From a virus (lineage: Duplodnaviria; Caudoviricetes), in the IMG/VR virus record IMGVR_UViG_3300014656_000030, positions 1 through 59,773 of that record: a stretch of DNA of 59,773 nucleotides; one strand, given 5' to 3'. The notes under the pieces are model-generated. The model was not told where the DNA came from, did no database searches, and worked only from the letters and a program-made list of their open reading frames with translations. Shown here piece by piece: positions 2 to 41,816 of this stretch (position 1 is the first letter of the stretch; each line of letters starts with the position of its first letter). The position numbers and the translations under genes were made by a program.

Positions 2-901
2 AGGTTTAGCTGGCGCAAGGGTGTGAAAGCTCACTCGAAAAGAGCCAGGAAGGGAGACACCCTCGGAGGCGTATATGGCTATATTAGAGACGATACCGCA
101 GCCGAGATGATAACATTCTCTGGAGAATTATACGATAGAAGGAAGGACGACATTGAACACTGTAAGGGTAAATGGGCCATAGCAAAGACAGAATACGCTG
201 GAGGTCTGAGAACCAGAAAGACTACAGAATCGATAAAGGCTACCATCAGAAATGTATTCTGCTCTGATATATGGTTAGAAGAGGACCTGATATCGGCATC
301 GATAGGTGGGATGGGAGTCGACCTGATAGATAAATCTAGGAAGTCCATACGATTTCTCGATATAGATGCATGCAAAGAGTGTTCACTGCGTGAAGAAGCC
401 GAGGCGCCAGTACCTCCTTCTGTCGGAGAGTGGAATGTAGCGATAATAGGTGAAGCTCCAGGTAGAGACGAAGATGTAGAAGGGATACCGTTTATCGGAA
501 GGTCTGGTGAGCTCGTATGGAACTATCTTCATAAAGCTAATTACAATAGGGAATTATTCTATGTAACAAACGTAACTAAGTGTTATCCAATGAGGTCCAA
601 GACTCCATCGATAAATCATATGAAATCGTGCAGGAGGTGGATTGATTCTGAGATAGAAGCTGTTAATCCTGTGGTGATACTTGCGTTCGGTAACGCTTCG
701 CTATGGTGGGTCACCGGTAAGACATCAGGAATTATGTCTCTAAACGGCACAACAGAATGGAACGCAAAACTTAACGCATGGATATGCTGGTGCGTCCATC
801 CTGCCAGCGCGCTCAGGTCTCCAGAAAATATGCCAACGCTTATAGAAGGTCTTGAAAACTTTATCAGAACTCTAGATAATATAGGAGGCAAATTCAGATG
901 A
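2..901 (+). CDS. 5'-truncated protein: DnaE-type OB-fold-like segment followed by family-4 (Fe-S) uracil-DNA glycosylase domain
   Basis: Frame open to window edge; UDG motifs CKEC, GEAPG, PFIG, NVTKC, HPAS; upstream YGYIRDDTAAEMITFSGELY resembles the Pol III alpha C-terminal OB fold. Confidence 0.75.
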   Translation, partial: RFSWRKGVKAHSKRARKGDTLGGVYGYIRDDTAAEMITFSGELYDRRKDDIEHCKGKWAIAKTEYAGGLRTRKTTESIKATIRNVFCSDIWLEEDLISASIGGMGVDLIDKSRKSIRFLDIDACKECSLREEAEAPVPPSVGEWNVAIIGEAPGRDEDVEGIPFIGRSGELVWNYLHKANYNRELFYVTNVTKCYPMRSKTPSINHMKSCRRWIDSEIEAVNPVVILAFGNASLWWVTGKTSGIMSLNGTTEWNAKLNAWICWCVHPASALRSPENMPTLIEGLENFIRTLDNIGGKFR

Positions 902-1224
902 TGCTAAACCTGGATGAAAGTATGACAGACTGGGTGGAAAAGTATGGAGATGGGTTCGTAAGGTCGCTCAGAGCGGCAGCAGAAGTAAGAGCCGAAAGAA
1001 GGAAATCGTATGGAGATACGTATCGTAACGACTACCTGATGTTTCTATACTATCAGATGAATAATAAGATTAAGAGATTCAAAAGTCAGATAGCATTTGA
1101 TGGAAATAGTGAATATGTTAAGGATGTATCGGTGGCGGTCGATTCTCTGCTCGATTTAATATGCTATGCCGCATTTGCATTTGAAAACACCATGGCAAAG
1201 GAGCTAAATGATGATGTCAGATAA
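898..1224 (+). CDS. Nucleotide-modification-associated domain 1 (DUF1599-like, all-alpha)
   Basis: KSYGDTY...NKIKRFK...DSLLDLICYA pattern. Confidence 0.7.
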   Translation: MMLNLDESMTDWVEKYGDGFVRSLRAAAEVRAERRKSYGDTYRNDYLMFLYYQMNNKIKRFKSQIAFDGNSEYVKDVSVAVDSLLDLICYAAFAFENTMAKELNDDVR

Positions 1225-2512
1225 GGTGGTACTCGGAGGAGGGCTGTCTGGTCTCATATACGCGTATTATCATAAGGACCATATTATAATATCACCGGAT
1301 ATCGGAGGAAAGATGGACGAAAGCGGTAAGGATTTTTTCTCTAATATAATATTTGCTCACTATAATAATGCCACCATAAGACTTCTAAATGATATTGGAA
1401 TACCATATTCTAGGGCGACAAGGCCAATAGTGTATATTGTGAAGGAAAAGGCTGACAATATGGCTGGATGGAAGAGAGTTGTATTAGATAAAAGCATGGT
1501 TAGCATCGATGTAAAACTAAAGATAATTAGAAAGAAGATGCGCGACCCTTCTTTTGAACCACTTGACCTGAATCTGTCAACCGACGATTACTACATCGAT
1601 ACGCTAGATTTTTCTATAAGCGACCTAGTTAGAAGACTTTCAGATAAGATTATGAATGAGGAAAGATGGCATGATCAGACTGCCATCAGGATAACTAAAG
1701 AAAAGGTGGTTACATCTGATACGTCATTTCCATATTCAAGACTGATATCCACTATACCGGCGGATATATTCTGGAAAATACACGAACTCGAACTCGACTG
1801 CGAACTAAAGTCTGGATGGACTACCTTCGCGCTATCGGATAGGCCAACATCGGAACTAAGAAATATTCAGTTTAATATTGCATATGACGCTACTGATAGT
1901 GCATGTACTAGGATATCTCATAATAACAAAAAAGATAACGACGTTTTCCTGTATGAGTTTGCAGGTAAGTTAGATGAACATCAAGTAGAGAGCAATCTTC
2001 CTCTTGATGCTAAGTTAATACAGTGGTATTCTGAACCTAGAGGGGTTATCTTTACGAACAGCTGGAACGTCCCTCCTCCTAATACTATATTCGTCGGAAG
2101 GTTCGCCCAGTGGAAGCATTCAATCAAGCTAGGAGACGTCATAGAATCAGCCCTATTCGACTGTGATGTGAGGACAATATTCAACAGGCAGCTAAACTTT
2201 ACCAAGAATTTCTTTGACCTAGATAAATTAAGGATGGATACTGAATACAGACAAGAATCGACCAGGAGTATTATGCTACTCCTCTACCCAGAGCTCGGAG
2301 AGATACTCAACGCGATAAACTATAAGGCTCATAGAAAGAGGAGAGATGTTAATGAAGAGCATGTTAAGGAAGAAATAGTCGATTCCTTTAAGTATCTTCT
2401 CAACCTGATGATTATATGGGGAATCGACTCGCAGGAGCTCTTTGAACTGTTTAGCGCTAAGTCAAAGATAGTTGAAGACAGATACAGAGAGAAGGTGAAA
2501 GATGAGACCTGA
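1208..2512 (+). CDS. FAD-dependent oxidoreductase fused to C-terminal all-alpha dNTP pyrophosphatase (dimeric dUTPase/dCTPase-like)
   Basis: N-terminal GGGLSG, LISTIP, VGRFAQW; C-terminal ELGE...KEEIVD metal-binding helices. Confidence 0.75.
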   Translation: MMMSDKVVLGGGLSGLIYAYYHKDHIIISPDIGGKMDESGKDFFSNIIFAHYNNATIRLLNDIGIPYSRATRPIVYIVKEKADNMAGWKRVVLDKSMVSIDVKLKIIRKKMRDPSFEPLDLNLSTDDYYIDTLDFSISDLVRRLSDKIMNEERWHDQTAIRITKEKVVTSDTSFPYSRLISTIPADIFWKIHELELDCELKSGWTTFALSDRPTSELRNIQFNIAYDATDSACTRISHNNKKDNDVFLYEFAGKLDEHQVESNLPLDAKLIQWYSEPRGVIFTNSWNVPPPNTIFVGRFAQWKHSIKLGDVIESALFDCDVRTIFNRQLNFTKNFFDLDKLRMDTEYRQESTRSIMLLLYPELGEILNAINYKAHRKRRDVNEEHVKEEIVDSFKYLLNLMIIWGIDSQELFELFSAKSKIVEDRYREKVKDET

Positions 2513-2966
2513 TTGGGAAACTTACTTTATGAAGATAGCCTATATCGTTTCTGAACGCTCTACATGCATAAGAAGGAAAGTTGGAGCCATCATCGTTAGA
2601 GACAATAGGATACTTTCCACCGGATATTCAGGAGCTCCTAGCGGTCTTCCGCACTGCGATGAAATTGGAAGCTGTCTAAGGGACGAGATGAATATCCCAA
2701 GTGGAGAAAGGTCTGAACTATGTCGCGCCGCTCACGCAGAACTCAACGCTATTTCTCAGGCGGCTCAATATGGCGTTGGTATAATGCGCTCAACAATGTA
2801 CTGTACCGATAGCCCATGTTCATTCTGTGCAAAGGCTATGATAAATTCAAAGATTATAACAGTCATATATGACAGAGAATATCCTGATACTATGGCTAGC
2901 AGAATGTTTGCAGAGGCAGGTATTGTATCAAAGAAAACGAAAATAGAGAAAGGATTTGAGACATGA
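2502..2966 (+). CDS. dCMP deaminase
   Basis: RSTC..RKVGA, HAE and PCxxC zinc motifs. Confidence 0.93.
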   Translation: MRPDWETYFMKIAYIVSERSTCIRRKVGAIIVRDNRILSTGYSGAPSGLPHCDEIGSCLRDEMNIPSGERSELCRAAHAELNAISQAAQYGVGIMRSTMYCTDSPCSFCAKAMINSKIITVIYDREYPDTMASRMFAEAGIVSKKTKIEKGFET

Positions 2967-3877
2967 AGGATAGCGAACGTAATCTAAAGGAAAGATTTGG
3001 AATACGATACGGAAAGAAACCGGAAACAAAGTTCATCGATAATATGAACGCGGTTAAAGTTAGGCTTATCGATTGGCCAGACCCAGATAGGTTGATAACC
3101 GTTCTCGTAAATATGGCGAAGGCCAGCTGGTATGAGGACTTTTCCGTCGATGCTGATAAGGGAGATATCGAAAAAACAGTAGAGAAGCTGCTGTCAGGAG
3201 AGGTGTTGGCTCAGGGATTAGAACACGCGACATTCTGTTTCCTAGTGTCAGGTCTAAGCCTTCATGGAACTCATATGCTCGTAAGGAACAGGGTGGGGAT
3301 ACGATATATGCAGAGGTCCACCGCAGTATGTGACTTCAGGGATGAACCGGTGCTTGTCCCAAGAGCATTCACCAGACATCCATCTATGCTTGAAAGATAT
3401 AAGGAATGGGCCCGTCAAGGGAAACAGCTCTATGCCGACTTGCTAGACACTGGAGACATAGCTGCCTCTGACGCCAGGATGTGCTTACCTAAGAGTATGC
3501 CTCAATGGTGTTATGTCAGCTGCTGCCTCACTACGCTCCTGTCGATATACGGAAAGCGCTCTGATACTCAGGAAGAGCCTCCTGAGATGAATATCATGGT
3601 GGAACAGATGAAAGACCTAGTGGTTGAAAAGTTCCCATATATGAGAAAGTATTTCGTCAGATTCTGTGATGTCGGAAAGTGCCTGCATAATAGACCAGGA
3701 TACGAGGCTAACTCGGTATTTGCAAGAGACGATAGGCATAAGGTGAATAGAATCAGAAAAGTAACGATAGTCGGAGACGGAGACGCAAATGAATTAGAAT
3801 TCTACAAGGATAACTGGACGCTTCATAACAAGACGAAACAGGAAATGATGCTTGACGCAGACCCATATGATGACTAA
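2963..3877 (+). CDS. thyX: Divergent flavin-dependent thymidylate synthase (ThyX-like)
   Basis: LEHATFCF, RNR-x8-S (variant of RHR-x7-S), DARMCLP. Confidence 0.7.
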   Translation: MKDSERNLKERFGIRYGKKPETKFIDNMNAVKVRLIDWPDPDRLITVLVNMAKASWYEDFSVDADKGDIEKTVEKLLSGEVLAQGLEHATFCFLVSGLSLHGTHMLVRNRVGIRYMQRSTAVCDFRDEPVLVPRAFTRHPSMLERYKEWARQGKQLYADLLDTGDIAASDARMCLPKSMPQWCYVSCCLTTLLSIYGKRSDTQEEPPEMNIMVEQMKDLVVEKFPYMRKYFVRFCDVGKCLHNRPGYEANSVFARDDRHKVNRIRKVTIVGDGDANELEFYKDNWTLHNKTKQEMMLDADPYDD

Positions 3878-3895
3878 ATTAAGGAGCAATAAATT

Positions 3896-4762
3896 ATGAT
3901 GATACAGGATATGTATCGAAATAATAAGTGGAAGATGCTGATGTGCTGTATCATGCTTAATAGGTCGAAGGGCGGCGTAGTGAAGAAAGTGGCTCCAAAC
4001 TTCTTCGATGAATTCGAATCTGCTCTGTCTGTTATTAATGGCGATAAAGATTTGATGACCAAAATTATACAACCGCTCGGACTTCAGAACGAAAGAGTTA
4101 ATAGGATGAAAGATTTATCCGAATGGTTTATAAATAATAAGAAGGTTGTTACTTCCGACGACCTGCTTGGAGCTCCAGGGGTTGGAGACTTCACTATCGA
4201 GTCATGGTCGGTGTTCATCGACAGAATAATACCAGAAGTAATAACCGATAAGGAAATAAGGAGATATGTTCAGAACGCTGTAAAATCCAGTGACATTATA
4301 AGAAGTTTTAGCAAAAGAATATATGAAGCTGGAGAATTTAATACGATAGAAGGCATGGACTATATTGAAGCAATTAACAAAGGCATAGAGATATATGATA
4401 ATGTATTCATCGAAAAGCTCGATGAAGATAACGCTAAGTATGTATCCGATAAGATGGCATTCATAGGAGACCAGATAGATTCTGCTATAAAAAAGATTAT
4501 GTATGACAGAAACAGCAGAAGGGCCATCATAGTATTCAACCAGGATGGAAACGAGCAGAACTGTTCCGTGTGTTCTCATATTCAGATAAGGAACAACAAG
4601 ATAATAGAGCTAGTGTATCAGCGTTCTCAGGACGTTGATATGCTGCATAAGGACATAGAAACATACGCAAGAATAGCTTGTCGTTTCTGTGAATATGGAT
4701 GGGCAGACGAATATTTTATATCAATAAGATACGGAAATATACACGCGAGATACGATGCATAA
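3896..4762 (+). CDS. MBD4-like HhH-GPD DNA glycosylase fused to minimal thymidylate-synthase-family domain
   Basis: N-half IQD..WKML..IMLNRS..PLGL..PGVG..TDKEIRRY; C-half DQI..SRRA..NC..YQRSQD..D..GNIH. Confidence 0.8.
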   Translation: MMIQDMYRNNKWKMLMCCIMLNRSKGGVVKKVAPNFFDEFESALSVINGDKDLMTKIIQPLGLQNERVNRMKDLSEWFINNKKVVTSDDLLGAPGVGDFTIESWSVFIDRIIPEVITDKEIRRYVQNAVKSSDIIRSFSKRIYEAGEFNTIEGMDYIEAINKGIEIYDNVFIEKLDEDNAKYVSDKMAFIGDQIDSAIKKIMYDRNSRRAIIVFNQDGNEQNCSVCSHIQIRNNKIIELVYQRSQDVDMLHKDIETYARIACRFCEYGWADEYFISIRYGNIHARYDA

Positions 4763-4802
4763 TAATGTTATGATTATTAAAAAAAACAAAGGAGGTAATA
4801 AA

Positions 4803-5018
4803 ATGGACTGTGGAGGACATAGAGATTCAGATAACTGCTGGTTTTTGATGATGGGAAAAGCGCAAAGGATGCTGCGCCGCCGTATGCGACATCACCGACC
4901 CAGCGATATGAAATATGCCCAGTTGGAACCAAGTCCTAATGACATAAAAAACTTGGCCGTGCACCAGACAGGCTGGAACGTGAAGTGCATCGGAAAAGGT
5001 TGTATTCATCATGGATGA
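4803..5018 (+). CDS. Hypothetical Cys-containing protein
   Basis: GGAGG RBS before ATG 4803. Confidence 0.5.
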   Translation: MDCGGHRDSDNCWFLMMGKAQRMLRRRMRHHRPSDMKYAQLEPSPNDIKNLAVHQTGWNVKCIGKGCIHHG

Positions 5019-5265
5019 ATACGTCCCGATAGCGCTACGTCAGGAATCGTGGAGCATGGCAAAGCATCCTGAAGCGTGGGGCATAGGACGTCTTGATGGG
5101 CATGGCGGAATGGGAATGACGCACGGACCATTCGATAGTGAAGAAGAGGCACTAGAGACGGTCGGAGAGCGGGGAGAAAGAATCGTTCATTTCTTTCCCG
5201 ATGGAACAGATAAAGTGGTATGGCGATGGAAGCTTGACAGATGGGTTAAAAGGTATCGCCTATAG
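5011..5265 (+). CDS. Hypothetical protein
   Basis: ORF coupled to upstream gene. Confidence 0.55.
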   Translation: MDEYVPIALRQESWSMAKHPEAWGIGRLDGHGGMGMTHGPFDSEEEALETVGERGERIVHFFPDGTDKVVWRWKLDRWVKRYRL

Positions 5266-5435
5266 GGTTCTGAAGGTCTCCAATGGTTTATAATATAGTA
5301 GAATAAGATATGGCCAAATGAGGAAAATAAAGGGAGATGAATGAACTACTACAACGACAACGACAAGAACGCGGCGATAGAAAAGTACGTGGTATTTGTC
5401 CCTCGGAAGGCTAAATGCAAAGAGTAAGGAGCGAA

Positions 5436-6326
5436 ATGACTGACTATCTCGGTCCATACGAATTAGGCAAGGTTCATTGCATGGACTGTATGGAAGCTAT
5501 GCCGCAGTTGCCGGATGGGTGCGTGGATTTGGTGCTGACTGACCCGCCGTATGGGATTGGTGAGGCGGCAAGACGGAACGAAACAAGAGGCTGTCTTGCG
5601 AAAGCGAAGAACTATGGTACAGCCAAGTGGGATGATAAACCTCCATCGTCTGAATGCTTCAAGCAAATAATGAGAGTATCGACAGAGCAAATTATTTTTG
5701 GTGGCAACTTTTTCACTTTTGCACTTCCGGCAAGCAGTAGTTGGATTGTTTGGGATAAACAAAACGGTGATACAGACTTTGCTGATTGTGAGCTTGCGTG
5801 GACATCTCATAAAAGAGCGGTGCGAAAGATTGTGTATCGTTGGCAGGGAATGTTACAAGGCAATATGGGGCATCTCAAAGAGCAACGGGTACACAGAACG
5901 CAAAAGCCGTTGCCAGTCATGCTATGGATATTAGAGAGGTATAGTTCCACCTCCAACATCATCCTCGACCCGTTCATGGGTTCAGGCACAACCGGAGTCG
6001 CCGCCGTCCAGCTTGGGCGTCGGTTCTTGGGATTTGAGATTGACCCGGAGTACTGTGAACTGGCAAACAAACGCATCGCCGAGGAAAAGCGTAAAGTAAA
6101 GCGTGGCATACCGGACTATTATAATGTATACCGCAACCACAAAGTCAGCGAAGGCACTGATAATGCTAAACTGCTCACCAGGGTTAAATCCCTGAACAAT
6201 CTGAGGCTCATTAAAGACAAACTCTACAAGAACTGTGTGGTATACGCACATTGGAATAAAGCAGATGATAGGGTCGAGGAGGATGAAATGGTCGGCAGGG
6301 TAGGCAAACTTCTGGCTAAAAGGTAA
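5436..6326 (+). CDS. DNA N6-adenine/N4-cytosine methyltransferase, beta class
   Basis: DPPY, HRTQKP, DPFMGSGTT; AAGGAG RBS before ATG 5436. Confidence 0.92.
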   Translation: MTDYLGPYELGKVHCMDCMEAMPQLPDGCVDLVLTDPPYGIGEAARRNETRGCLAKAKNYGTAKWDDKPPSSECFKQIMRVSTEQIIFGGNFFTFALPASSSWIVWDKQNGDTDFADCELAWTSHKRAVRKIVYRWQGMLQGNMGHLKEQRVHRTQKPLPVMLWILERYSSTSNIILDPFMGSGTTGVAAVQLGRRFLGFEIDPEYCELANKRIAEEKRKVKRGIPDYYNVYRNHKVSEGTDNAKLLTRVKSLNNLRLIKDKLYKNCVVYAHWNKADDRVEEDEMVGRVGKLLAKR

Positions 6327-9810: not shown

Positions 9811-10356
9811 ATGGAAAGAACACGGACAAAAACTGAAAGAAAGAAACCGCGCATAAAGGTATCCTCTGCCAAGGCCAAGGGGCGTGAGTTTCAGCAGTGG
9901 GTCGGACGACAGATATCAATAATCACTGGTTATAAATTCGGAAAGGATTGCCCGATAGAATCCCGCCCGATGGGACAGAGCGGCGTAGATGTACGAATGG
10001 AAGAACGTGTGCTGAATATGTTTCCTTTTTCTGTGGAATGTAAGCGTCAGGAAAACTGGTCTGTGCCAGCGTGGATTGAACAGGCCGCCAGGAATCAGCT
10101 ACCGAACACCGACTGGCTCCTGTTCATGCGCAGGAGTAGGACTCCAGCGGTGGTAACGATGGATGCGCTGGCATTCTTCAGACTCATTGGCAGCGGTATC
10201 AGGCTTGAGGATAACAACGGCGGCGACGTTATAGAAATAATGCCAAATGGTAACGGCGGGTATTCAATGACGATATGTCAATCATGCGTTCGAATATTTG
10301 AATCGGAAGGCACTATAAGCTCTATTATATCTGACTTGAAGGAGAATATACTATGA
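9811..10356 (+). CDS. Holliday junction resolvase (PD-(D/E)xK)
   Basis: AKAKGREFQ, MGQSGVDV, FSVECK. Confidence 0.8.
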   Translation: MERTRTKTERKKPRIKVSSAKAKGREFQQWVGRQISIITGYKFGKDCPIESRPMGQSGVDVRMEERVLNMFPFSVECKRQENWSVPAWIEQAARNQLPNTDWLLFMRRSRTPAVVTMDALAFFRLIGSGIRLEDNNGGDVIEIMPNGNGGYSMTICQSCVRIFESEGTISSIISDLKENIL

Positions 10357-10565
10357 GCACAGACGCCTACAAGATGTATATCAGTTATGACAAAGGCAAG
10401 ACATATGTTTGTGAATATATCGTCGATGACGTGGAAGAGATTAAAGACTTAATTCGTGCATTTGAGCGTAGGAAGATGGTTGTGGATTTCTACGTCAAGC
10501 ATAAAGGTAAGACGATTACAGTCAGTCCGTATTCTAAGAAAAAGGCGGATAAAGCAACACCCTGA
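10353..10565 (+). CDS. Hypothetical protein
   Basis: AGGAG RBS, coupled ORF. Confidence 0.55.
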   Translation: MSTDAYKMYISYDKGKTYVCEYIVDDVEEIKDLIRAFERRKMVVDFYVKHKGKTITVSPYSKKKADKATP

Positions 10566-10571
10566 AAAGCT

Positions 10572-11639
10572 ATGTTAGAATCTATACAAATAAAGAACTT
10601 CCAGAGCCATAATGACACCGAGATAGAATTGTCAGAAGGTGTTAACGTATTCATCGGCCTATCGAGCGCAGGTAAGAGCGCCATAATGAGAGCCATACGG
10701 TGGCTGAGGAATAATAGGCCGGGAGGTGAATCATTTCGCTCTAACTGGGGCGGCACCACGACTGCACGCATTATATTGAACGACAAGGATGAAACAACAA
10801 TAAGCCGTATAAGAAGCGATAAATCCAACGAATATCTATTAGATGATATTATCGTATCACCTATACGATTCAAAGCCATCGGAACGGATGTTCCAGAAGA
10901 GATTCAGAAGGCGCTCCGTATAGACGACATATGTGTACAGGGCCAGCATGACCGCCACTTTCTGCTCAGCGAAAGCCCCGGAGAAGTCGCCCGTCACTTT
11001 AACGAAGTTGCTCATATTGAAGTGATAGACGTCGCTCTGAAAAACATACAGAGCAATATACGGACGATAGATGCTGATATCTGCGACCATAAAATAAACA
11101 TAGATGCGCTCACCGAAGAGCTTGATGACTACATCCAACTACCAAGTATCGAAGAAGAGGTTGTTAAGGCGGAAAGTATTGAGTGCGAAGTACAGACTGT
11201 AACCGAAGGTATAAAGAAGATAACAGCATTGATGTTTACCTTCAACGAGGCTGAAGCGGGTATATTATACAGAAATAACTTTATTCTGGCAGCTTCTTAC
11301 GTCGACAAAGCCCTCGGCATATTCGAACGTATAGGCTTAATAGAAGCAGATGCGCTGACGCTTAGGAGACTGACGGAACAATATGAAGCGACAGAAGGAG
11401 CGATACGCGACAGGAACAACTTTATCCTAGCATCTCCAACAGTAGATAAGGCGCTCGACGTGTATAAGCACATAAGCGCGATACATTCGAGCATCCTGAA
11501 GCTCAAGAGAACGATTGAAGCGCACGAAGAAGTTGAAGGTGAGATACATATAGGAAAAAGAAACGTAGAAGACCTTCAGGCAGAACTGAATGCAAACTTC
11601 CCTGACATATGCCCGCTCTGTGAACAGGAGATAAAATAA
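10572..11639 (+). CDS. Rad50/SbcC-like ATPase, N-terminal half ending at zinc hook
   Basis: IKNFQSH, GLSSAGKS Walker A, Q-loop, coiled coil, terminal CPLC. Confidence 0.88.
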   Translation: MLESIQIKNFQSHNDTEIELSEGVNVFIGLSSAGKSAIMRAIRWLRNNRPGGESFRSNWGGTTTARIILNDKDETTISRIRSDKSNEYLLDDIIVSPIRFKAIGTDVPEEIQKALRIDDICVQGQHDRHFLLSESPGEVARHFNEVAHIEVIDVALKNIQSNIRTIDADICDHKINIDALTEELDDYIQLPSIEEEVVKAESIECEVQTVTEGIKKITALMFTFNEAEAGILYRNNFILAASYVDKALGIFERIGLIEADALTLRRLTEQYEATEGAIRDRNNFILASPTVDKALDVYKHISAIHSSILKLKRTIEAHEEVEGEIHIGKRNVEDLQAELNANFPDICPLCEQEIK

Positions 11640-33703: not shown

Positions 33704-34090
33704 TCAATCGTACTCGAAGCTCGTTATCGCCCTGAGCGTCGGTCTCCTTTTCCCCAAAGCCGCCATCTTACCAGTAGAATCCAACATCAGCACGGTCTGA
33801 CCATATGTCGTAGAACGAAGTTGCTGTCCAAAACTGTCCGAGAACCTAACCGACGGGGCCGGACCACCTCCGGCTTCCTTCAGCATCTTACTACGCTGAA
33901 TCGTAGCAACGATAATATGAGCAGTCAGCCAGCACTCTATCTGCTCTTTAAGAGCGTCAGTTATCGTTGTGTCGCTACCTAGAACCTCTGTGACCAACTC
34001 ATTAGCCGTCAGAATAAAAGAATCAACGGTGCCGGTAGCAACGCTTTCCGAAAGGATAGCATTCACCTCAGCAGCAGTCGTTCTAGCCAT
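33704..34090 (-). CDS. Head-tail connector
   Basis: WLTAH, STTYGQ..LDSTG. Confidence 0.75.
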   Translation of the reverse strand: MARTTAAEVNAILSESVATGTVDSFILTANELVTEVLGSDTTITDALKEQIECWLTAHIIVATIQRSKMLKEAGGGPAPSVRFSDSFGQQLRSTTYGQTVLMLDSTGKMAALGKRRPTLRAITSFEYD

Positions 34091-34796
34091 GCGCGTGCAC
34101 CCCTTTCCTTGCCTTCCATAGTTTAGGGTCGACGAACTCTATGATTGCCTTCTCGTTCCATTCCAGTCCAAGCCATTCTACGACATCATATAACTGCCGG
34201 TAATCTCCGCGAACCATCCTATCCGGCCATATTACCTTACAGTTCAACCCATTCTCTATCATCTCCACAAATCTGTTACGATGCTGACGCTCCCACCACA
34301 ACCATCCGTCAAATTCAGAGCTTACCTTCACCGCCCGCTGTATAAATGATTTCCTATATGCGGACATAAACGCAGTCTTGCAACAAGAATGGGCGATATC
34401 GCTTGGTTTTCTCCGAACTATTATCCACTTCGCATCAGGAAAAGAATGAAACCATATCGGCCACATTAAACACATCTTGGCACCCTTGTAAAACCAAGGG
34501 CCTTCCTTATACCCCTCATCCATAAACACCTTTTGAACCTTCTGTCTCCAATCAGACGGTATCGGAAGATTATGAATATCTGGTAATGGGTACTGCCCAA
34601 GTCTATCTACCCTAATAGATTCGAAATACGGCTTAACCAGCGTCTGGACCACTCGTACGTTTTCATACATACCCTTCCTGTTGTTACTATTCGCTCCGCG
34701 CATTACACCACCAAACGCATTACACCTAAATATAGAACCTGCAACAAGGCTAGTACCAGAACGAGCGGCACCGGTTATCAATATAGGTTCTTTCAT
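34083..34796 (-). CDS. Sulfotransferase-family protein
   Basis: ITGAARSGTS PAPS loop, N..G.YE, VRR.P..A.S; ATGA overlap. Confidence 0.8.
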   Translation of the reverse strand: MKEPILITGAARSGTSLVAGSIFRCNAFGGVMRGANSNNRKGMYENVRVVQTLVKPYFESIRVDRLGQYPLPDIHNLPIPSDWRQKVQKVFMDEGYKEGPWFYKGAKMCLMWPIWFHSFPDAKWIIVRRKPSDIAHSCCKTAFMSAYRKSFIQRAVKVSSEFDGWLWWERQHRNRFVEMIENGLNCKVIWPDRMVRGDYRQLYDVVEWLGLEWNEKAIIEFVDPKLWKARKGVHAHG

Positions 34797-37216
34797 TTCC
34801 AATTTTGTTTCACCCAATCCAACTCCTCCACTATTGCGTGAGGTCTCGGTCGTCCGTGAAAGCATATAACCCTCGCATTCTTAGGTAATTCATGCCTACA
34901 ATTACGCTTATATGAATAAATACCAGCAAAATAATTTTGCAAGGACTTGTATTGAATACCCTTTAATTTTAATTTGCTATGAAAATATTCCTGGTCCCCC
35001 ATCTTAAATCTAGACACCAAATCAGGGTCAAATTCATCGAATATAAAGTTACAGGTACCGTTGTCCCAAATCATTATTCCAGAAGCAAATAAGCCATTAC
35101 TCCTGCTTTTCTTATTCCAAGGGGTAAGGGCAAAGAAATCAGAATTTAATCTTAATAAGTCATCAATATTACCCAATATTACAGTGTCCAAATCCAGGTA
35201 CACAATATTATTAGAATCAAATATCCCCTCCCTAAATATCTCAACTTTACTCCACCATCCAGCTAAATTACGGTCTAATTGTACAATTCTAACCCCATCC
35301 AAACTTATATCCATATCAGTAAAACAGGTTAAATCATATGGAACAGTTATGTTTCTACTCAGGGCGTTCCTAAGATGTTCAACATACCTTATGTCATAAT
35401 CCCCTCCAGATTTTAACACGCATACTACAGACGTGGAAATATTATTACGCTCAGGCAACTCCTCCGCCAAGTTTCTTATGGACACATACGCCTTATCATG
35501 AGGGTTTTCTACAACCTCAGAAGTCTGTGCTGTTTCATTATTGTCATAATAATTAGGCCCAGTGTATGGTTGGTCATTTATAACAGCAATAGCGCGGTCT
35601 GAAAATATCTCCCAATCAACCTTATCAGCAAATTCAGGAAAGTATGTTTTGTGTATAGTATCTGGCGGAAATGTATTATAGGCAAAATTCCGGTGTACGC
35701 CGTTGGTATAAAGATACCTATGGTATAGTAGGATAGTTTTCACTCCGAACACCCCAGACATAATAGTTATGCCAGAGTTCATACCGATTACTGCTTGGCT
35801 CCCCCTTATAAGCCCAAACACCTCCTCAAGAGCGGTTTTACCCCTCAAATCTACAGTGTTCTTTGGAAGCATCTTAGCTAGTTTGTCTAATTCTAAATCA
35901 TCCTTATCCCACCTAGCCCCAATTAATACTGGTTTTAATCCAGTAGTACCAACTATTTTATTAACAGCACTAGCTATCTGTTTAATGCTTATGTCTTCCA
36001 ACAGCAATTTACTAGTACCAACCAGCACCCAGTAAAGTAATAAATAATCGCCATATTGCAATATTGCCCTTTTTCTGTAATTTTCCTCATTCAAAGATAT
36101 AAACCTAGGTAGATACCAGTTGCACTTCAAATCAGGGGCCTGTTCCTGTAATGACTTACCGGCCCTTAAATACCCATTCCAAGTTATGAAATAGTCGCAC
36201 CCCTGTACGCTCTCAAATATAGAACGCCCCTGCTCCAAATATGCTTCTTTCCAAACCGGGTCTTTTTTGTTGAATTTTACTTCTCCTGTTGAATAAAGAA
36301 ATGGAAACATCTCCAAGAACGGAAATGAACGGGCATGTGAATCGTATTTCTTGGCCCTTGGGGCGGCCACATACGCATCCACCGGCTCGGACAGTCCTTC
36401 CCGCTTCAAAAAGGATTCAGTCTTTATAAGAGTCCAATATACGTCCCCCACACCAGGAGGTAGTAAAAGACTTGGCCTATGCTGAGTAGGTTTACTCAGC
36501 TCAAATACAACCTTGGTGGGCTCCTTTTCTATAGTACCATTTACCAAAAATCCAATTCTCTTTACTAGTTTAACCAATTGCTCTGGCTTAAAATACCATA
36601 TGTGCTCTATCCTCTTCCAATGACCTAAAGCATCAGGATGGAAAAATAAAGGCAATTCCATATAGCATCTTCCATTAGGTTGCAACACTCTAAATATCTC
36701 TTTTAAAAATCTTATTGGGTCTAACACATGCTCTACTACATCAGCGCATACTATAGTATCAAAATGCTCTGTTGGAAAATGTATGCTCTCAAATTTTTTG
36801 AAATATATGAATTCATTCTCAGGAGCATAATGATACCTAGTAAGTTCACATCCATATGCTTCTATTCCCTTATCCCTACAATATGCCACCAAAGCCCCAC
36901 TACCGCATCCTATATCCAATACTCGTTTAGATAACGCCAATCCCAGCCTATTGAAAGTCTTTTGAGCATTGTTTGCATCATGCGAATAATTACCCGCAGT
37001 AAATGCTTTTTTAGATGGAGGATACTTTGTGGAGTACTGTAAATCATACTCAGCCTCGGTGGCAAATGGTAAATCTACCTGTCTGACCATACCACAAGTA
37101 TTACACACCTCTATTGGTATAGAACAAGGCTCAGATTTACCAGCAGCACTGGTTACAAAACCATCATGAGCGTCTGAGCTGAAATTTAAACTCCCACAAA
37201 CGCAGTTCATTAGCAT
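34793..37216 (-). CDS. Trifunctional SAM methyltransferase / GT9-like / GT-A glycosyltransferase
   Basis: VLDIGCGSG; PGVGD..DLRGKT.L..IG.NSG; GWWSK..YLDLD..GDQ..FHG.PRP. Confidence 0.85.
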   Translation of the reverse strand: MLMNCVCGSLNFSSDAHDGFVTSAAGKSEPCSIPIEVCNTCGMVRQVDLPFATEAEYDLQYSTKYPPSKKAFTAGNYSHDANNAQKTFNRLGLALSKRVLDIGCGSGALVAYCRDKGIEAYGCELTRYHYAPENEFIYFKKFESIHFPTEHFDTIVCADVVEHVLDPIRFLKEIFRVLQPNGRCYMELPLFFHPDALGHWKRIEHIWYFKPEQLVKLVKRIGFLVNGTIEKEPTKVVFELSKPTQHRPSLLLPPGVGDVYWTLIKTESFLKREGLSEPVDAYVAAPRAKKYDSHARSFPFLEMFPFLYSTGEVKFNKKDPVWKEAYLEQGRSIFESVQGCDYFITWNGYLRAGKSLQEQAPDLKCNWYLPRFISLNEENYRKRAILQYGDYLLLYWVLVGTSKLLLEDISIKQIASAVNKIVGTTGLKPVLIGARWDKDDLELDKLAKMLPKNTVDLRGKTALEEVFGLIRGSQAVIGMNSGITIMSGVFGVKTILLYHRYLYTNGVHRNFAYNTFPPDTIHKTYFPEFADKVDWEIFSDRAIAVINDQPYTGPNYYDNNETAQTSEVVENPHDKAYVSIRNLAEELPERNNISTSVVCVLKSGGDYDIRYVEHLRNALSRNITVPYDLTCFTDMDISLDGVRIVQLDRNLAGWWSKVEIFREGIFDSNNIVYLDLDTVILGNIDDLLRLNSDFFALTPWNKKSRSNGLFASGIMIWDNGTCNFIFDEFDPDLVSRFKMGDQEYFHSKLKLKGIQYKSLQNYFAGIYSYKRNCRHELPKNARVICFHGRPRPHAIVEELDWVKQNWK

Positions 37217-38415
37217 ACCTCCTCATACAACTCTTTCAACTCAGAAATCATACAAGGCCCATCAAACTGAGTTGCCGCCATATACATATCAATCACATCC
37301 ATCGACGTCCTCGGTTCTAATACCGGAAATGAAAAGATACTATCCAGTATTCCAGTTATATTTGAGGTGTGGGTAGGCCCAGCATAGAACGGTTTTACGC
37401 TTCCTACAACAGCCTTTATAATCACATGGAACTTAAATTCACCGTCTGATATACGTTCTATCATATCAAGCTGATTCACCAAGGCGTCCATAGCATTCCA
37501 AATAAAATCATGGCGTTCAAAGAACAGCACAGATTTGAACCCCTCAAGTGACATCCCCATGGCCAATCCGGCCATCAGGTTCTCCGCCACAGGGGTTTCT
37601 AACTTCTGCTCGTTAGGAATATTTTCCAGTGTACTATATGCAGAACCATGCCGCACGTTATACCCCACAAATATATAGCCTTTAGCGGCAAGTATTGCCA
37701 TAGCCTCTGTTACTGCCTGCTTGTATTTTCGTGGGGCAATAGACGGTGGGTCTAATGTAAATTTCCACTTCTTTGGCGCATCTAAGACAACAGCCTCCCG
37801 CTTAAATTTAAGCCACCCTCCAGAACCTGACCCGGCGTGAGGATATATTGGGGTATAATCATAGTGTAAAACACAATGGAATTGCCGCGCATATTCAGAA
37901 GCCCAATGCTTAATATTCCACCGTTCTATTCTGGTACTAGTAACAGAGCGATTGTTATCTTCTATTACAAACGTGCACGGTAATTCAAATCCGTCCACAT
38001 ACCTACACGCCTCATACAAGTGGCCTTCGTCAGAGGCCCCATCTCCAATAAAACACCACACGTGCCGGTCGCTCCCCTTTTTCTTCAAGGCCCATGCCAC
38101 CCCAGCAGCAATTCCAGGAGTGCCCGCCAATATGGATGACGAATAGAAATTCAACTTCCTGTCAAATATAAACATACTCTTACCGGCATCCACAAATCGT
38201 TCCAGACGTTTTACACTACCCCCGGCAAGTAGGTAATGATAGTGCGACCTATGCGTTGAAAATACATAATCCCCCTTGGTAAAACTTTCAGTGAACAGTT
38301 TAATAAGCTCATCCTCATTACCGCCGGATAAGTGAGTTAAATATGGGTATTGTCCATCGTCATATTTGGCAGCCAATGTTTTTTCTATATCTATCAGTTG
38401 ACGTTTGGTTAACAT
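37210..38415 (-). CDS. TPP-dependent E1 alpha/beta-like fused enzyme
   Basis: HLSGGNE, STHRSH, GDG..EG..EDNN; ETPVAEN..G.A.G, GPTH. Confidence 0.88.
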   Translation of the reverse strand: MLTKRQLIDIEKTLAAKYDDGQYPYLTHLSGGNEDELIKLFTESFTKGDYVFSTHRSHYHYLLAGGSVKRLERFVDAGKSMFIFDRKLNFYSSSILAGTPGIAAGVAWALKKKGSDRHVWCFIGDGASDEGHLYEACRYVDGFELPCTFVIEDNNRSVTSTRIERWNIKHWASEYARQFHCVLHYDYTPIYPHAGSGSGGWLKFKREAVVLDAPKKWKFTLDPPSIAPRKYKQAVTEAMAILAAKGYIFVGYNVRHGSAYSTLENIPNEQKLETPVAENLMAGLAMGMSLEGFKSVLFFERHDFIWNAMDALVNQLDMIERISDGEFKFHVIIKAVVGSVKPFYAGPTHTSNITGILDSIFSFPVLEPRTSMDVIDMYMAATQFDGPCMISELKELYEEVC

Positions 38416-39377
38416 TATATTTCCTTACTATGAACTTCCTTCCATAACTTTGCCCCATTTATTGGAACTGTTCCTGATTCCCCGATAACCATGCCTGCGG
38501 CAATGTTTGCAATATCCGCAGCATCAATGATACTATACCCAGAACACATGCACGCAGCAACGACCGCTAGAACAGTATCCCCAGCCCCAGTTACGTCAAA
38601 TACGGTCTTTGCTTTCGTATGTAAGTACTTCCCGCATTCGACACCATCGTCAGTTATTATCATCATACCATCAGGACCCATGGTGACGATAATGGCCCCT
38701 AACTTATATTTTTCCTTAGCTTCCAGAGCCAACTTTGCAACAGATTCATGATTTGGTGCCGTTTTCAACATGGCCCGTTCAAGTTCACGCACATTCGGTT
38801 TTATTACATCGCACCCACGTACCCCATCCCAGCAATGTCGCTTAGTATCAACAAATGATTTGACTCCCTTCTTTTTGGCCTCATTTATCAGCATTTGCAG
38901 GACGTCATCGTTCAGAAAACCTTTATTGTAATCTGATATAATAACAGCATTAGTTCCTTCCAGCACCTCATCTACATTAAGTTCCGCACTGCAATTCTCC
39001 CCCCACCGTTCATCATCAATCCTAAGTATGTGCTGGGAACCGGCCATCGCACGAGTTTTCGTAGTAGTGCGGCGGGTAACATCCATTACTATACGCCCAT
39101 TCATCCTATCCTCAGAATTGATAATGCTCAGAATATCCATCCCAGAACGGTCTTCACCCACCACACCAAATAATTTTACCATACATCCAAGACCTATTAT
39201 ATTTGAAGCTACGTTACCAGCCCCGCCAAGCATCTTAGCGCGTACCCTCTCCAGCAATATAGGAACTGGAGCCTCTGGAGATATCCTGTTTACTTTACCA
39301 TGAATGTACACATCAAGCATTACATCCCCCACCACCGATATTGTAATACCATTACTAACAACACTTGGTAAAGTCAT
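38415..39377 (-). CDS. rfaE1: Heptose-7-phosphate kinase (HldE/RfaE domain I, PfkB family)
   Basis: GDVMLD, RISPEAPVP, GGAGNVA, SDYNKG, DVTGAGDT. Confidence 0.9.
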   Translation of the reverse strand: MTLPSVVSNGITISVVGDVMLDVYIHGKVNRISPEAPVPILLERVRAKMLGGAGNVASNIIGLGCMVKLFGVVGEDRSGMDILSIINSEDRMNGRIVMDVTRRTTTKTRAMAGSQHILRIDDERWGENCSAELNVDEVLEGTNAVIISDYNKGFLNDDVLQMLINEAKKKGVKSFVDTKRHCWDGVRGCDVIKPNVRELERAMLKTAPNHESVAKLALEAKEKYKLGAIIVTMGPDGMMIITDDGVECGKYLHTKAKTVFDVTGAGDTVLAVVAACMCSGYSIIDAADIANIAAGMVIGESGTVPINGAKLWKEVHSKEI

Positions 39378-40042
39378 TAAAAACGCTCCAATGTAATAGA
39401 GGTAACAGCCAATGAGTCATATTTTCTATTGTACAAGTCAAATACTGCATCAGCCACCGCTTCAGGACTAATCAGGTTATCCCAATCTTCCCGATGCCGG
39501 ACCATATCAGTTTTCATAGCTCCAGGATAGATACTAAGCACCCGAATGCCGGCAGGACGGCCAACTTTATCCATTGCTTCAGAAAACCCACGCAGACCAA
39601 ATTTCGTGGCACTATACACAGGTTCATTATACGATGAATTCAAACCAGCCACAGAGTTAATGTTAATTATGGCTCCATTTTTACTCTTTTCAAGATAGGG
39701 CCAAGCTATCTGAGTTATCATGATAGGAATCATGAAGTTCACCGAACTAATGACTATGATTTTTTCGCTAGGCATATCCTGCAAAGATTCATCGCTATAT
39801 ACCCCTGCATTATTTACCACCAAATCAACTCCGAACTCGTCAAGCGTCTCATGTATGTTAATAAGCGTAGCGGCCATCGTAAGGTCGCCCCCTATAACGC
39901 GCATAAATGGAACCACGCCATCAACATCGTCAGGAGGGTTTCCGCTCCTACAAGTGAGTATCAACCCAAAACCATCCCTAGCAAATCGTCTGGTCAGGGT
40001 CAAACCAAGCCCTCTGTTGGCACCAGTTATCAACACATTCAT
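39377..40042 (-). CDS. SDR oxidoreductase
   Basis: TGANRGLG, NNAG, YSATK. Confidence 0.92.
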   Translation of the reverse strand: MNVLITGANRGLGLTLTRRFARDGFGLILTCRSGNPPDDVDGVVPFMRVIGGDLTMAATLINIHETLDEFGVDLVVNNAGVYSDESLQDMPSEKIIVISSVNFMIPIMITQIAWPYLEKSKNGAIININSVAGLNSSYNEPVYSATKFGLRGFSEAMDKVGRPAGIRVLSIYPGAMKTDMVRHREDWDNLISPEAVADAVFDLYNRKYDSLAVTSITLERF

Positions 40043-40045
40043 TTC

Positions 40046-41143
40046 TTATCCTCTATGGTTTCTTTGCATGCCATCTTTTTCTTTGTCGTTTACCCTACAA
40101 TCTAATAGCACCTTACCTGCGTTAGGGCCGCGCGCAGTAAATATGGCCTTGTCAACATCCCCAAGACCGTAGGTGTGTGAAACCAGAAGTCCCGGGGTGT
40201 ACTGACCACACTCATACATCGCAATATACCTTGGTATGGCCGCGTACGGTACAGTCAATCCTCCCTGACTGTCCATTATCGTTCTGCCTCGGTAGTCGTG
40301 ATGGCCCATCTTTATAGATATCGGACGGTCGTGATGCGGCTGTCCGACAAGAATCATCCTTCCGTTTTTACCAAGCGCGTCAAACCCACTCTGGATTATC
40401 TCTTCACTTCCGGTGCAGTCTATGAACACATCTACCTCATAGGCTCTCATCGCATCTTCCATATCAGTTTCTTCAAGCGCAACATTCCACACTTGCGTGG
40501 CGCCGCACATACGGGCTCTACCAAGTTTGGCATCATGAATATCAAACGCTAGTATTTCGCCAGCACCAGCGACGGCGGCTCCCATAATAGTGCTGAGACC
40601 CACACCGCCGCACCCGGCGACGGCAACGGATTCTCCTAGCTCAAGCATCGCCTCGTTCTCTATGAGACCGAAACCAGTCGTAATTGCACATCCATATAGA
40701 CAGGCAATATCTAATGGAAAGTTTTCTGGTATAGGAGTTAACCTGTTCTCCGAAACCACAGCCTCAGTACAAAATGTATGAACAGGACCACCACCAACCC
40801 TCTTATAATGAACAAACCCATCTATAGGTTCAACCTTAAAAGCATATCCGGCAGGTTCTGCTTCTATACCCAGACCTTTCCTCCAGTGCATTACTACATG
40901 GTCCCCCACCTTAATATTCCTGACCCCTGTGCCTACAGCCTTCACTATCCCAGACCCCTCATGCCCTAGGCAATGTGGCAGGTATTTATCAGGGCCTTTC
41001 GCCCCAGATATTTCACCTAATTGGGCTCCGCAAATGGCAGAATAATGAACGTCCACTAAAACTTGCCCTATCTTTAGGGGCGGAACTTCTAGCTCTCTAA
41101 TTGCTAATGAGGCATTTAATTTTTCCAATATTGCAGCAATCAT
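40046..41143 (-). CDS. Zn-binding medium-chain dehydrogenase
   Basis: ICG, GHEGSG, GCA..TG, GCGGVG. Confidence 0.9.
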   Translation of the reverse strand: MIAAILEKLNASLAIRELEVPPLKIGQVLVDVHYSAICGAQLGEISGAKGPDKYLPHCLGHEGSGIVKAVGTGVRNIKVGDHVVMHWRKGLGIEAEPAGYAFKVEPIDGFVHYKRVGGGPVHTFCTEAVVSENRLTPIPENFPLDIACLYGCAITTGFGLIENEAMLELGESVAVAGCGGVGLSTIMGAAVAGAGEILAFDIHDAKLGRARMCGATQVWNVALEETDMEDAMRAYEVDVFIDCTGSEEIIQSGFDALGKNGRMILVGQPHHDRPISIKMGHHDYRGRTIMDSQGGLTVPYAAIPRYIAMYECGQYTPGLLVSHTYGLGDVDKAIFTARGPNAGKVLLDCRVNDKEKDGMQRNHRG

Positions 41144-41144
41144 G

Positions 41145-41816
41145 TTAACCCCACCAAAGTAGTTTTTTATAGCCCAAACTCTTCAAGAAAGGTTTTAGTT
41201 TTTCCTCATTGGCTTTCAAATAATCCCATTCCTCTGGTATAAATCCACGCAGTACATTTGCGTCCTGAGCCAAATACGCAGCATTAGTCTCTTTGGCAAC
41301 AGCCCCCACAGAATTTACCTTGGGCCAACCGGCAGAATACAATCTCAAATTTGGCTCAGGTTCCAATCCTACAAATTCCGTCATTTTAACCAAAGCTCTA
41401 TACCTATTGGTATAAGATTGCCCTTTAAGTATATCTACAGGTAATATGAATATAGAGCGCCTAAGGACCAATTCTACCAGTGTTACAAATCCATTTACTA
41501 TGTAAAAGTGCTTCAAATTTGGGTGCCTATTTCGCCGTGTTAATAAAGCCAATAGCGGGTCCCTAACAGGAATTATTGGAGGATATTCGGCAAACAATGA
41601 ATCCAAAGCTTCACTTGACGTAAATTTGTCTGAATCCTCAGTGAATATTTGCTCACCATCCCCAAAATGGGTGTGCACCAATACCGTACCATTCCGTATA
41701 ACCTCAACGTCCCGCAACTCACGAAACTCGTTTACAGTACAATTATTACGCAATATATTTAACACAAACCAAGTTCCTGTGTGTGGTATAGTAGCAACCA
41801 GTATTACTTTAATCAA
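41145..41816 (-). CDS. Sulfotransferase-like P-loop protein
   Basis: TIPHTGT, H.H, VRDP. Confidence 0.6.
   Translation of the reverse strand: MIKVILVATIPHTGTWFVLNILRNNCTVNEFRELRDVEVIRNGTVLVHTHFGDGEQIFTEDSDKFTSSEALDSLFAEYPPIIPVRDPLLALLTRRNRHPNLKHFYIVNGFVTLVELVLRRSIFILPVDILKGQSYTNRYRALVKMTEFVGLEPEPNLRLYSAGWPKVNSVGAVAKETNAAYLAQDANVLRGFIPEEWDYLKANEEKLKPFLKSLGYKKLLWWG

Follow-up and report, generated by a model that had tools for sequence, protein, structure and literature searches.

The window analysed here is the whole of the IMG/VR virus record IMGVR_UViG_3300014656_000030 (Duplodnaviria; Caudoviricetes), a stretch of 59,773 bp that is estimated to be 76% complete. Near-identical DNA was found in groundwater metagenome runs, X1 (which may be the source), X2 and X3 from one study and X4 from another; runs X5–X10, with small shares, were left out of the evidence. 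Close to the start of the window, five plus-strand open reading frames (ORFs) at 898–1224, 1208–2512, 2502–2966, 2963–3877 and 3896–4762, designated here g1 to g5, form a cassette in which consecutive ORFs overlap by 17, 11 and 4 nt, with an 18-nt gap at the last junction. A sequence-only reading had described them as a tightly coupled operon for a candidate new cytosine modification and its repair. The coupling was confirmed by this arrangement. All five genes have conserved relatives in other genomes; therefore, they are not chance ORFs. The cassette is best explained as a small version of a nucleotide-pool module that is conserved, has not been described so far and is located beside the replicative DnaE-type DNA polymerase. 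Other loci that were compared are designated by L and a number.

Domains and active-site residues of the cassette proteins

The last gene, g5, encodes a two-domain protein whose AlphaFold2 (AF2) model had a predicted local distance difference test score (pLDDT) of 94.7 and a predicted template modelling score of 0.91. Pfam matches were found for both domains (PF00730, HhH-GPD, 2.3e-4; PF00303, thymidylate synthase (TS), 1.8e-3), the second of them weak. The N-terminal domain (residues 1 to ~135; 3896–4297, plus strand) is an HhH-GPD DNA glycosylase of the MBD4 family. A profile built from 13 relatives of this domain matched MBD4 glycosylase domains over their whole length (E=7.9e-38), and 4ofa was retrieved in the VIA comparison with a Z of 18.4 and a root-mean-square deviation (rmsd) of 2.1 over 131 aligned residues. 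G95 and G97 of the helix-hairpin-helix (HhH) GxG hairpin, as well as D118, which sits on the Asp of the MBD4 PEDHKL segment, were invariant in 13/13 relatives. The domain thus shares with MBD4/Mig-type glycosylases both the hairpin and the Asp at the catalytic position, but it differs from MBD4 in having no methyl-CpG-binding domain and in being fused at its C-terminus to a TS-fold domain. The substrates of MBD4 are T:G, U:G and 5-hydroxymethyluracil (hmU):G, the deamination products of 5-methylcytosine, cytosine and 5-hydroxymethylcytosine, respectively. An aGPT-Pplase-type transferase was also considered for the HhH domain and was ruled out by the strength of the MBD4 match and by the absence of an aGPT-Pplase match in Pfam.

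The C-terminal domain of g5 (residues ~135–288, ~155 aa; 4298–4762, plus strand) is a truncated TS fold of the cytosine type, which we refer to as mini-TS. A ten-member mini-TS profile aligned to residues 110–209 of ThyA with E-values down to 1.1e-9 and to T4 dCMP hydroxymethylase (1b49) with E=2.8e-6, and the ~60 residues that precede this core resemble the N-terminal helix and strand of ThyA. Both profile and structure showed that the folate-contacting helices (~45–105) and the C-terminal ~55 residues of ThyA (210–264) are missing. The nucleotide-site residues are retained: C223 corresponds to Cys146, R205 to R126', R243 and S244 to R166 and S167, D246 to D169, and H283 to H207. All of these were invariant columns in the ten mini-TS members, whether standalone or fused; in the mini-TS alignment A4, the columns of the deoxynucleoside monophosphate (dNMP) phosphate/sugar site are R74, R109, S110 and H149. 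The PF00303 score of g5 was 17.9 bits (cut-off 24.3), and relatives P0034, P0035, P0043, P0064 and P0077 reached 25–38 bits. The best VIA match of the domain was 9iqc, annotated as "Monooxygenase dependent on riboflavin with dCMP and FAD" (Z 16.2, rmsd 2.6, 161 aligned residues), followed by TS structures (Z from 14.7 for 3v8h to 14.1), T4 dCMP hydroxymethylase (6l18, Z 13.5) and MilA (Z 13.5).

It has been reported, in the parts of Lee et al. (NAR 2026, PMC13326640) that deal with these residues, that N177D marks dCMP-using ThyA homologues and that homologues with N177D, L143E and a diagnostic D169N are flavin-dependent 5-hydroxy-dCMP synthases. In g5, D253 aligns to Asn177 (the Asn of PFNIASY); Asp was invariant at this column in the ten profile members and occurred in 30 of 31 tabulated members. 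Glu220 occupies the L143 position according to our reading of the register of the hidden Markov model (HMM). The Asp at position 169 is kept in g5 (D246, within RSQD) and in its closest relatives, and Asn169 was observed only in L011, L016 and the Geobacillus phage GR1. Judged by these residues, the mini-TS of the window fits the T4-type cytosine signature and does not fit the published signature of 5-hydroxy-dCMP synthases.

An exhaustive HMMER search with g5 yielded 575 representatives at E<=1e-3; the 150 matches listed included ~8 full-length fusions, ~9 standalone mini-TS proteins of ~160 aa and many standalone MBD4-like domains. When longer proteins were searched for with the mini-TS profile, only fusions with HhH-GPD (3 proteins) were identified, and no protein with the two-domain architecture of g5 was present among the 50 matches listed in a Foldseek search against viral models (BFVD). 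One of the BFVD entries, A0A3G1L3Q7, an uncharacterised 151-aa protein of the cultured cyanophage Synechococcus phage S-CBWM1, weakly matched the g5 model (E=7.9e-3, template modelling (TM) score by target 0.64) and may be another mini-TS.

The gene upstream of g5, g4 (2963–3877, plus strand), encodes a ThyX-like flavoprotein (PF02511, 4.7e-22, 79.1 bits, cut-off 24.8) with a rebuilt substrate loop. ThyX proteins carry the motif RHRxxSxxxxSxR, in place of which g4 has the loop RNRVGIRYMQRSTA: RHR is changed to RNR (His to Asn), one residue is inserted, the first Ser is missing, and Ala takes the place of the last Arg. A profile alignment to Mycobacterium tuberculosis ThyX showed that the g4 group keeps R172 and R199, whose equivalents were invariant in 8/8 aligned ThyX-like proteins, and has lost R107 and Y108. 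Compared with the flavin-dependent TS (ThyX/FDTS) enzymes of M. tuberculosis and T. maritima, g4 therefore retains the fold core and this Arg pair, whereas the His of RHR, the first Ser, the last Arg and the following Tyr of the motif are gone and one residue has been gained. Other phage ThyX variants located beside the same NTPase (L017, L019, L020 and L033) also have RxR and an extra residue and keep S.RF; therefore, the His-to-Asn change alone is not disabling. A third ThyX-like group, of ~430 aa and with the loop THQNVRTRLGAGFMQHGGRDNDWRHR, was observed in viral loci L018 and L023–L032, where it follows an NTPase-containing ORF of ~340 aa.

The second gene, g2 (434 aa), is a fusion of two domains (AF2 pLDDT 89.4). 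The N-terminal domain (residues ~1–325; 1208–2182, plus strand) was predicted to be an FAD-type Rossmann flavoprotein with the fold shared by UGM, protoporphyrinogen oxidase (PPOX) and amine oxidases. Its best VIA match was UGM 4dsg (Z 23.1, rmsd 3.1, 304 aligned residues) with an identity of 14%, followed by PPOX 4ivm (Z 21.9), protoporphyrinogen oxidases in general (Z 20–22) and amine oxidases (Z ~18). Foldseek matches of this domain included putrescine oxidase, L-amino-acid oxidase and UGM, and the Pfam UGM family did not match it. The C-terminal domain (residues ~326–434; 2183–2512, plus strand) was predicted to be an all-alpha NTP pyrophosphatase of the dimeric dUTPase/MazG type. Residues 352–411 matched PF08761 (dUTPase_2) with 1.4e-4 and 22.6 bits, just below the cut-off of 22.9 bits; the same family was a precomputed match in 12 of 31 g2 relatives, and the domain also matched PHROG nucleotide pyrophosphohydrolase families. 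A word search yielded these 31 relatives, 28 of which were aligned. The acidic metal-binding quartet (ExxE ... ExxD; E362, E365, E389 and D392) was invariant in 28/28 sequences, and the GGGxSG dinucleotide motif and the GRF..W.H motif were likewise invariant or nearly so. By its predicted structure, g2 is a UGM/PPOX-fold flavoprotein fused to an all-alpha NTPase.

The third gene, g3 (2502–2966, plus strand), encodes a dCMP deaminase (PF00383, 3.1e-22, 78.8 bits, cut-off 25; phrog_174, 2.6e-49), and its translation carries the HAE and PCxxC zinc motifs. The first gene, g1 (898–1224, plus strand), encodes a small helical protein of 108 aa, which is also the conserved first gene of the cassette in L002–L005. 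It had no Pfam match at E<=0.1. Its relatives showed sub-threshold similarity to DUF1599 (PF07659; E=0.07 and 0.12, 13–14 bits, cut-off 25), and an hhalign comparison with the genuine DUF1599 protein of L003 (PF07659, 1.3e-5) resulted in E=3.3e-4 and a probability of only 38%. In the protein atlas, the clusters nearest to g1 were those of DUF1599 (score 0.95, 213 shared features, TM 0.65). We conclude that g1 is probably a divergent Nmad1 protein. The calls made in the sequence-only reading for the other genes held: the folds supported both the FAD oxidoreductase-dNTPase and the glycosylase-TS-like protein, and family matches supported the dCMP deaminase and the ThyX-like protein. The Nmad1-like call, for which Pfam and hhalign gave little and the atlas pointed to DUF1599, is the weakest of the five.

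The g1 ORF shares 4 nt with an upstream ORF that runs off the start of the window (2–901, plus strand) and comprises the C-terminal end of a polymerase and a family-4-type uracil-DNA glycosylase (UDG) domain (PF03167, 1.2e-25). Over residues 1–295, this ORF shared 44% identity with the C-terminal part of an L002 ORF of 1150 aa (L002 2–3454), in which Pol III alpha (DnaE-type) finger/NTPase domains are accompanied by an intein and a UDG domain; thus, the cassette abuts the replicative polymerase. That a phage polymerase of the DnaE type (Pol III alpha) ends in a UDG-superfamily domain, and in the L002 homologue also carries an intein, is a separate observation.

Recurrence of the module in phages and Patescibacteria

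With the g2 family as bait, we fetched 36 viral loci and scored their gene content by HMM within 7 kb. Of these loci, 29 contained a ThyX-like gene and 10 a mini-TS. The order g1, g2, ThyX-like gene and mini-TS (fused or unfused to the glycosylase) was kept in L002, L003/L004 and L005, where the identity of the ThyX-like proteins was 56–61%. The gene-neighbourhood search suggested in the sequence-only reading thus recovered a colinear set, without the deaminase. More distant copies additionally contained Tmk-like kinases (L006 and L007), SDR epimerases (L005 and L016), UDG-family proteins (L006 and L009), a NUDIX protein (L006) and a radical SAM protein (L007), the last of which is encoded at 9812–10864 of its locus, between the cassette kinase and the polymerase. 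The core of the module is a flavoprotein-NTPase, a ThyX-like protein and a mini-TS, often accompanied by a Tmk-like kinase and a DNA glycosylase, and it recurs in viral contigs, in Patescibacteria metagenome-assembled genomes (MAGs) and in phage GR1.

The only cultured carrier found was the thermophilic Geobacillus phage GR1 (L044, OK896991.1 22797–35429). Here, the genes for a ThyX-like protein and a mini-TS form a pair next to the gene for the DnaE-type polymerase; a glycosyltransferase and an NfsB-like flavin reductase are encoded upstream of the pair, and the region also encodes a small P-loop protein. The loop of the ThyX-like protein is RHRTFSFSAQCTGD, and the mini-TS (151 aa) is of the Asn169 type and was detected by HMM with 1.3e-8 in a search of ten proteins. 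A tblastn search of phages with the mini-TS gave no match. The passages searched of the GR1 paper do not discuss DNA restriction or modification.

Seven further loci were derived from species-representative genomes, mostly Patescibacteria MAGs; for example, L045–L048 are labelled Patescibacteria, and L049 is labelled Gammaproteobacteria. A mini-TS was found in 7/7 and a ThyX-like gene in 6/7 of these loci, and one is part of a contig of 454 kb. The gene order was g2, ThyX-like, Tmk-like kinase, mini-TS (182 aa in L045–L049), UDG, glycosyltransferase GT2 and NUDIX; GT2 was assigned by Pfam in L045, and the corresponding neighbour in L049 was recognised by sequence likeness to L045 only. A different arrangement was observed at L051 (6035–10067), which contains a kinase-mini-TS fusion (319 aa), a separate UGM-fold domain, a fusion of dUTPase_2 with an NT5C 5'-nucleotidase and a 379-aa ThyX-like gene. 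This copy lies beside a family B DNA polymerase, and the kinase fusion was seen in L051 only.

We also found that the module co-exists with canonical thymidylate synthases. All five MAGs tested had a second ThyX besides the cassette copy, and one of them also had ThyA (1e-105). Similarly, of the five viral records tested, two had a second and stronger ThyX match, one of them being the complete record of 95.9 kb. In the L003 phage, a canonical ThyX (RHRLASFAQESTRF; RHR..S....S.R), in which the motif is intact, is encoded 5 kb from the cassette. It belongs to a trio of genes downstream of the polymerase (L003 13430–14792), the other two being the genuine DUF1599/Nmad1 gene mentioned above and a gene for a DUF1937/nucleoside 2-deoxyribosyltransferase-like protein.

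Neighbouring genes in the window

Immediately downstream of the cassette, two small overlapping ORFs of 87 and 84 aa (4755–5265, plus strand) belong to no Pfam or PHROG family and were not seen beside the cassette in the other loci compared. They are followed by a gene for an N6/N4-type DNA methyltransferase (5415–6326, plus strand; PF01555, 1.2e-24; phrog_67, 8.1e-51) with a DPPY motif. Further away, a run of sugar-related genes adjoins the major capsid gene (34083–42493, minus strand) and includes a sulfotransferase-like gene, a methyltransferase fused to GT9, a thiamine pyrophosphate E1-type enzyme, a PfkB sugar kinase, an SDR, a Zn-dehydrogenase and a weak MptE/Maf-like gene. A distant blastn search of GenBank phages with the 3.9-kb stretch gave no match, and single-protein searches of viral contigs with g4 and g5 gave none that was confirmed by tblastn.

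Possible function of the module

In phage T4, the precursor pathway of hydroxymethylcytosine consists of the all-alpha dCTPase/dUTPase gp56, the ThyA-type dCMP hydroxymethylase gp42, the deaminase cd, the synthase td and the dNMP kinase gp1. The same roles can be assigned in the window to an all-alpha NTPase, a TS fold that has Cys146 and carries Asp in place of Asn177, the dCMP deaminase and a second enzyme of the thymidylate synthase type. The earlier proposal that T4 logic is rebuilt here from different parts was partly supported: this logic is present, with a glycosylase of the T:G/U:G type in addition, and the deaminase falls outside the conserved core. The parts themselves differ from those of T4 in several ways. 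The mini-TS has ~155 aa instead of 246 and has neither ThyA residues ~45 to ~105 nor anything after ~209; fusion partners are present on both the mini-TS (a DNA glycosylase) and the NTPase (a UGM-fold flavoprotein); the second synthase is of the ThyX type with a rebuilt loop; and the cassette of the window contains no kinase and no DNA glucosyltransferase. Replacement by 5-methylcytosine of the Xanthomonas phage XP12 type depends on a ThyA-type dCMP methylase, and the ThyA homologues involved are of full length. The likeness to that system is that cytosine-type TS chemistry at the dNMP level gives a base that deaminates to T, which fits an MBD4-type repair enzyme.

From these comparisons we infer that the module may be a pre-replicative pathway for a C5-modified cytosine with matched repair of its deamination products, a reading that we favour tentatively and place slightly short of an even chance. 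In such a pathway, the all-alpha NTPase domain of g2 would hydrolyse dCTP and/or dUTP to the monophosphate. The mini-TS of g5 would then bind dCMP in the retained ThyA nucleotide site, Cys223 would attack C6, and a substituent would be added at C5. Since Asp169 is retained, this substituent would most likely be a one-carbon unit from a pterin-type donor, that is, 5-methyl or 5-hydroxymethyl. The g4 protein, the g2 flavoprotein or both could supply the functions that the mini-TS lacks, such as cofactor binding, a methylene/hydride relay or reduced flavin. The dCMP deaminase would send part of the dCMP pool to dUMP, as cd does in T4, and thereby balance the pools, and a kinase, encoded either by the host or on the missing 24% of the genome, would raise the product to the triphosphate. 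After replication, deamination products that resemble T or hmU and face G could be excised by the MBD4-type domain, and U could be removed by the UDG domain of the polymerase.

Several observations weigh against this reading. The dCMP deaminase gene is absent from the closest copies of the cassette (L002–L005), and therefore it is not part of the conserved core. Most of the folate-contacting segments of the mini-TS are gone, so the domain may be unable to carry out one-carbon transfer alone. The g4 group keeps R172 and R199, which we take to bind uracil O4 and phosphate in M. tuberculosis ThyX, and hence it looks like a uracil enzyme that fits dUMP rather than dCMP. No dNMP kinase, Tmk-like gene or thymidylate kinase was found in this record, which is 76% complete. 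Neither was a second ThyX, a ThyA or a trimeric dUTPase found in it, so g4 could simply be the dTMP synthase of the phage. A canonical ThyX elsewhere in a genome is no proof of a different function either, since T4, too, duplicates host functions. In addition, the finding of copies on Patescibacteria chromosomes may indicate a role in salvage or in sanitation of the pool, and not in DNA modification. The modified base proposed in the sequence-only reading draws support from the conservation of the module beside polymerases and from its co-existence with canonical ThyX or ThyA, and it is weakened by the missing kinase, the missing cofactor segments, the position of the deaminase outside the conserved core and the uracil-type appearance of g4.

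Some of these points suggest an ordinary supply of dTMP together with base-excision repair, in which a dUTPase/dCTPase and a deaminase lead to dUMP, g4 is a divergent but functional ThyX, the glycosylases perform uracil/mismatch repair, and the mini-TS is a degenerate or regulatory binder of dCMP or dUMP. We consider this unlikely, though a serious contender. A dCMP deaminase, a member of the ThyX family and a dUTPase-type NTPase constitute the textbook route, no other ThyX, ThyA or trimeric dUTPase was found in the window, the R172/R199 pair of the ThyX fold is invariant, and the variants of L017, L019, L020 and L033 carry RxR with the extra residue while S.RF is kept. However, the g4 group has lost the last Arg of the motif and the following Tyr, and the full catalytic set of the mini-TS is strongly conserved together with Asp at 177, a pattern that hardly fits a decayed domain. 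A Tmk-like kinase, a NUDIX protein and a second glycosylase travel with the module as well. Plain dTMP supply is thus unlikely to be the whole story because a canonical ThyX or ThyA occurs alongside the cassette in 5/5 MAGs and 2/5 viral records, motif residues of g4 are lost and a cytosine-type mini-TS is conserved. A modification on the thymine side, in which the ThyX-like enzyme would release a hydroxymethyl or other C5 adduct of dUMP (the hmU logic of SPO1 transferred to a flavin enzyme) with the mini-TS and the glycosylase as accessories, appears very improbable. The presumed uracil and phosphate residues of g4 next to a rebuilt catalytic loop would suit it, the dCMP deaminase would feed dUMP, and ThyX chemistry is described in a passage of PMC8989533 as proceeding through an exocyclic methylene intermediate. 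This explanation leaves the conserved cytosine-type mini-TS without a role, and neither a dTTPase/dTMPase nor an hmU DNA kinase was found in the cassette. Moreover, an MBD4-type enzyme would excise hmU opposite G and not protect it. A genome containing dU was also considered and was rejected in view of the UDG domain on the polymerase.

The mini-TS could instead be a flavin-dependent dCMP monooxygenase like RB69 gp48, DLP3 gp80 and the HY126 enzyme, with one of the two cassette flavoproteins giving reduced flavin and the resulting 5-hydroxycytosine being glycosylated afterwards. These 5-hydroxy-dCMP synthases (9iqc) likewise have a TS fold that acts on dCMP and carry N177D, and their pathways also use all-alpha dCTPase, Tmk-like/dNMP kinases, sugar-nucleotide enzymes (UGM in RL38J1) and glycosyltransferases, as described in parts of PMC13326640. 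In agreement with this, the structure most similar to the mini-TS was 9iqc (Z 16.2 compared with 14.7 for the best TS), the loss of folate-binding segments fits a non-folate cofactor, Asp is present at 177 and, by the HMM register, Glu220 at the L143 position, and Asn169 occurs in the mini-TS members of L011, L016 and GR1. The GR1 region also encodes both an NfsB-like flavin reductase and a glycosyltransferase, some cassettes contain genes for GT2 and SDR epimerases, and glycosyltransferase and sugar genes are located at 34–42 kb of the window. Nevertheless, we regard this pathway as rather improbable for the window. The difference in Z from ordinary TS is just 1.5, and the sugar genes of the window lie in the structural module by the capsid gene, where they may serve the virion. 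The window protein and its closest relatives keep Asp (Asp246) where the passages of Lee et al. 2026 (PMC13326640) give D169N as diagnostic, and the synthases described there are single-domain proteins of ~230 aa. The main text of PMC13326640 contains zero mentions of ThyX and thus no ThyX-like partner for these enzymes.

A bolder version of the C5-modified cytosine pathway is that g4 and the mini-TS are halves of one hybrid catalyst, in which the TS half would hold and thiol-activate dCMP and the flavoprotein would deliver the C5 substituent, either as a flavin-N5 methylene or as activated oxygen. The module would then replace cytosine across the DNA of many Patescibacteria (candidate phyla radiation, CPR) and their phages, with glycosylases policing the deamination products. 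We view this version as doubtful. A joint structure prediction with two ThyX-like and two mini-TS copies returned a score of 0.00, which is no answer and counts neither for nor against binding.

To our knowledge, every phage pyrimidine replacement described begins with a ThyA-type enzyme of full length, and our literature search retrieved no paper in which base modification by phages involves a ThyX-type enzyme or a shortened TS domain. The core described here differs from the known routes in its ThyX-type protein with a rebuilt loop, its half-size cytosine-type TS domain and its fusion of a UGM-fold flavoprotein with an NTPase. If it makes a modified base, the enzymatic route would be new, the base itself possibly too, and the MBD4-type fusion would couple the synthesis of the base to the repair of its deamination product. 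GR1, as a cultured carrier, makes the question of the base directly testable. The module is not confined to phages, and its presence beside canonical synthases in Patescibacteria MAGs leads one to ask whether DNA modification also takes place in the chromosomes of these bacteria. If the hybrid catalyst and the replacement of cytosine were true, CPR genomes would hold a non-canonical base that is hidden by routine sequencing.

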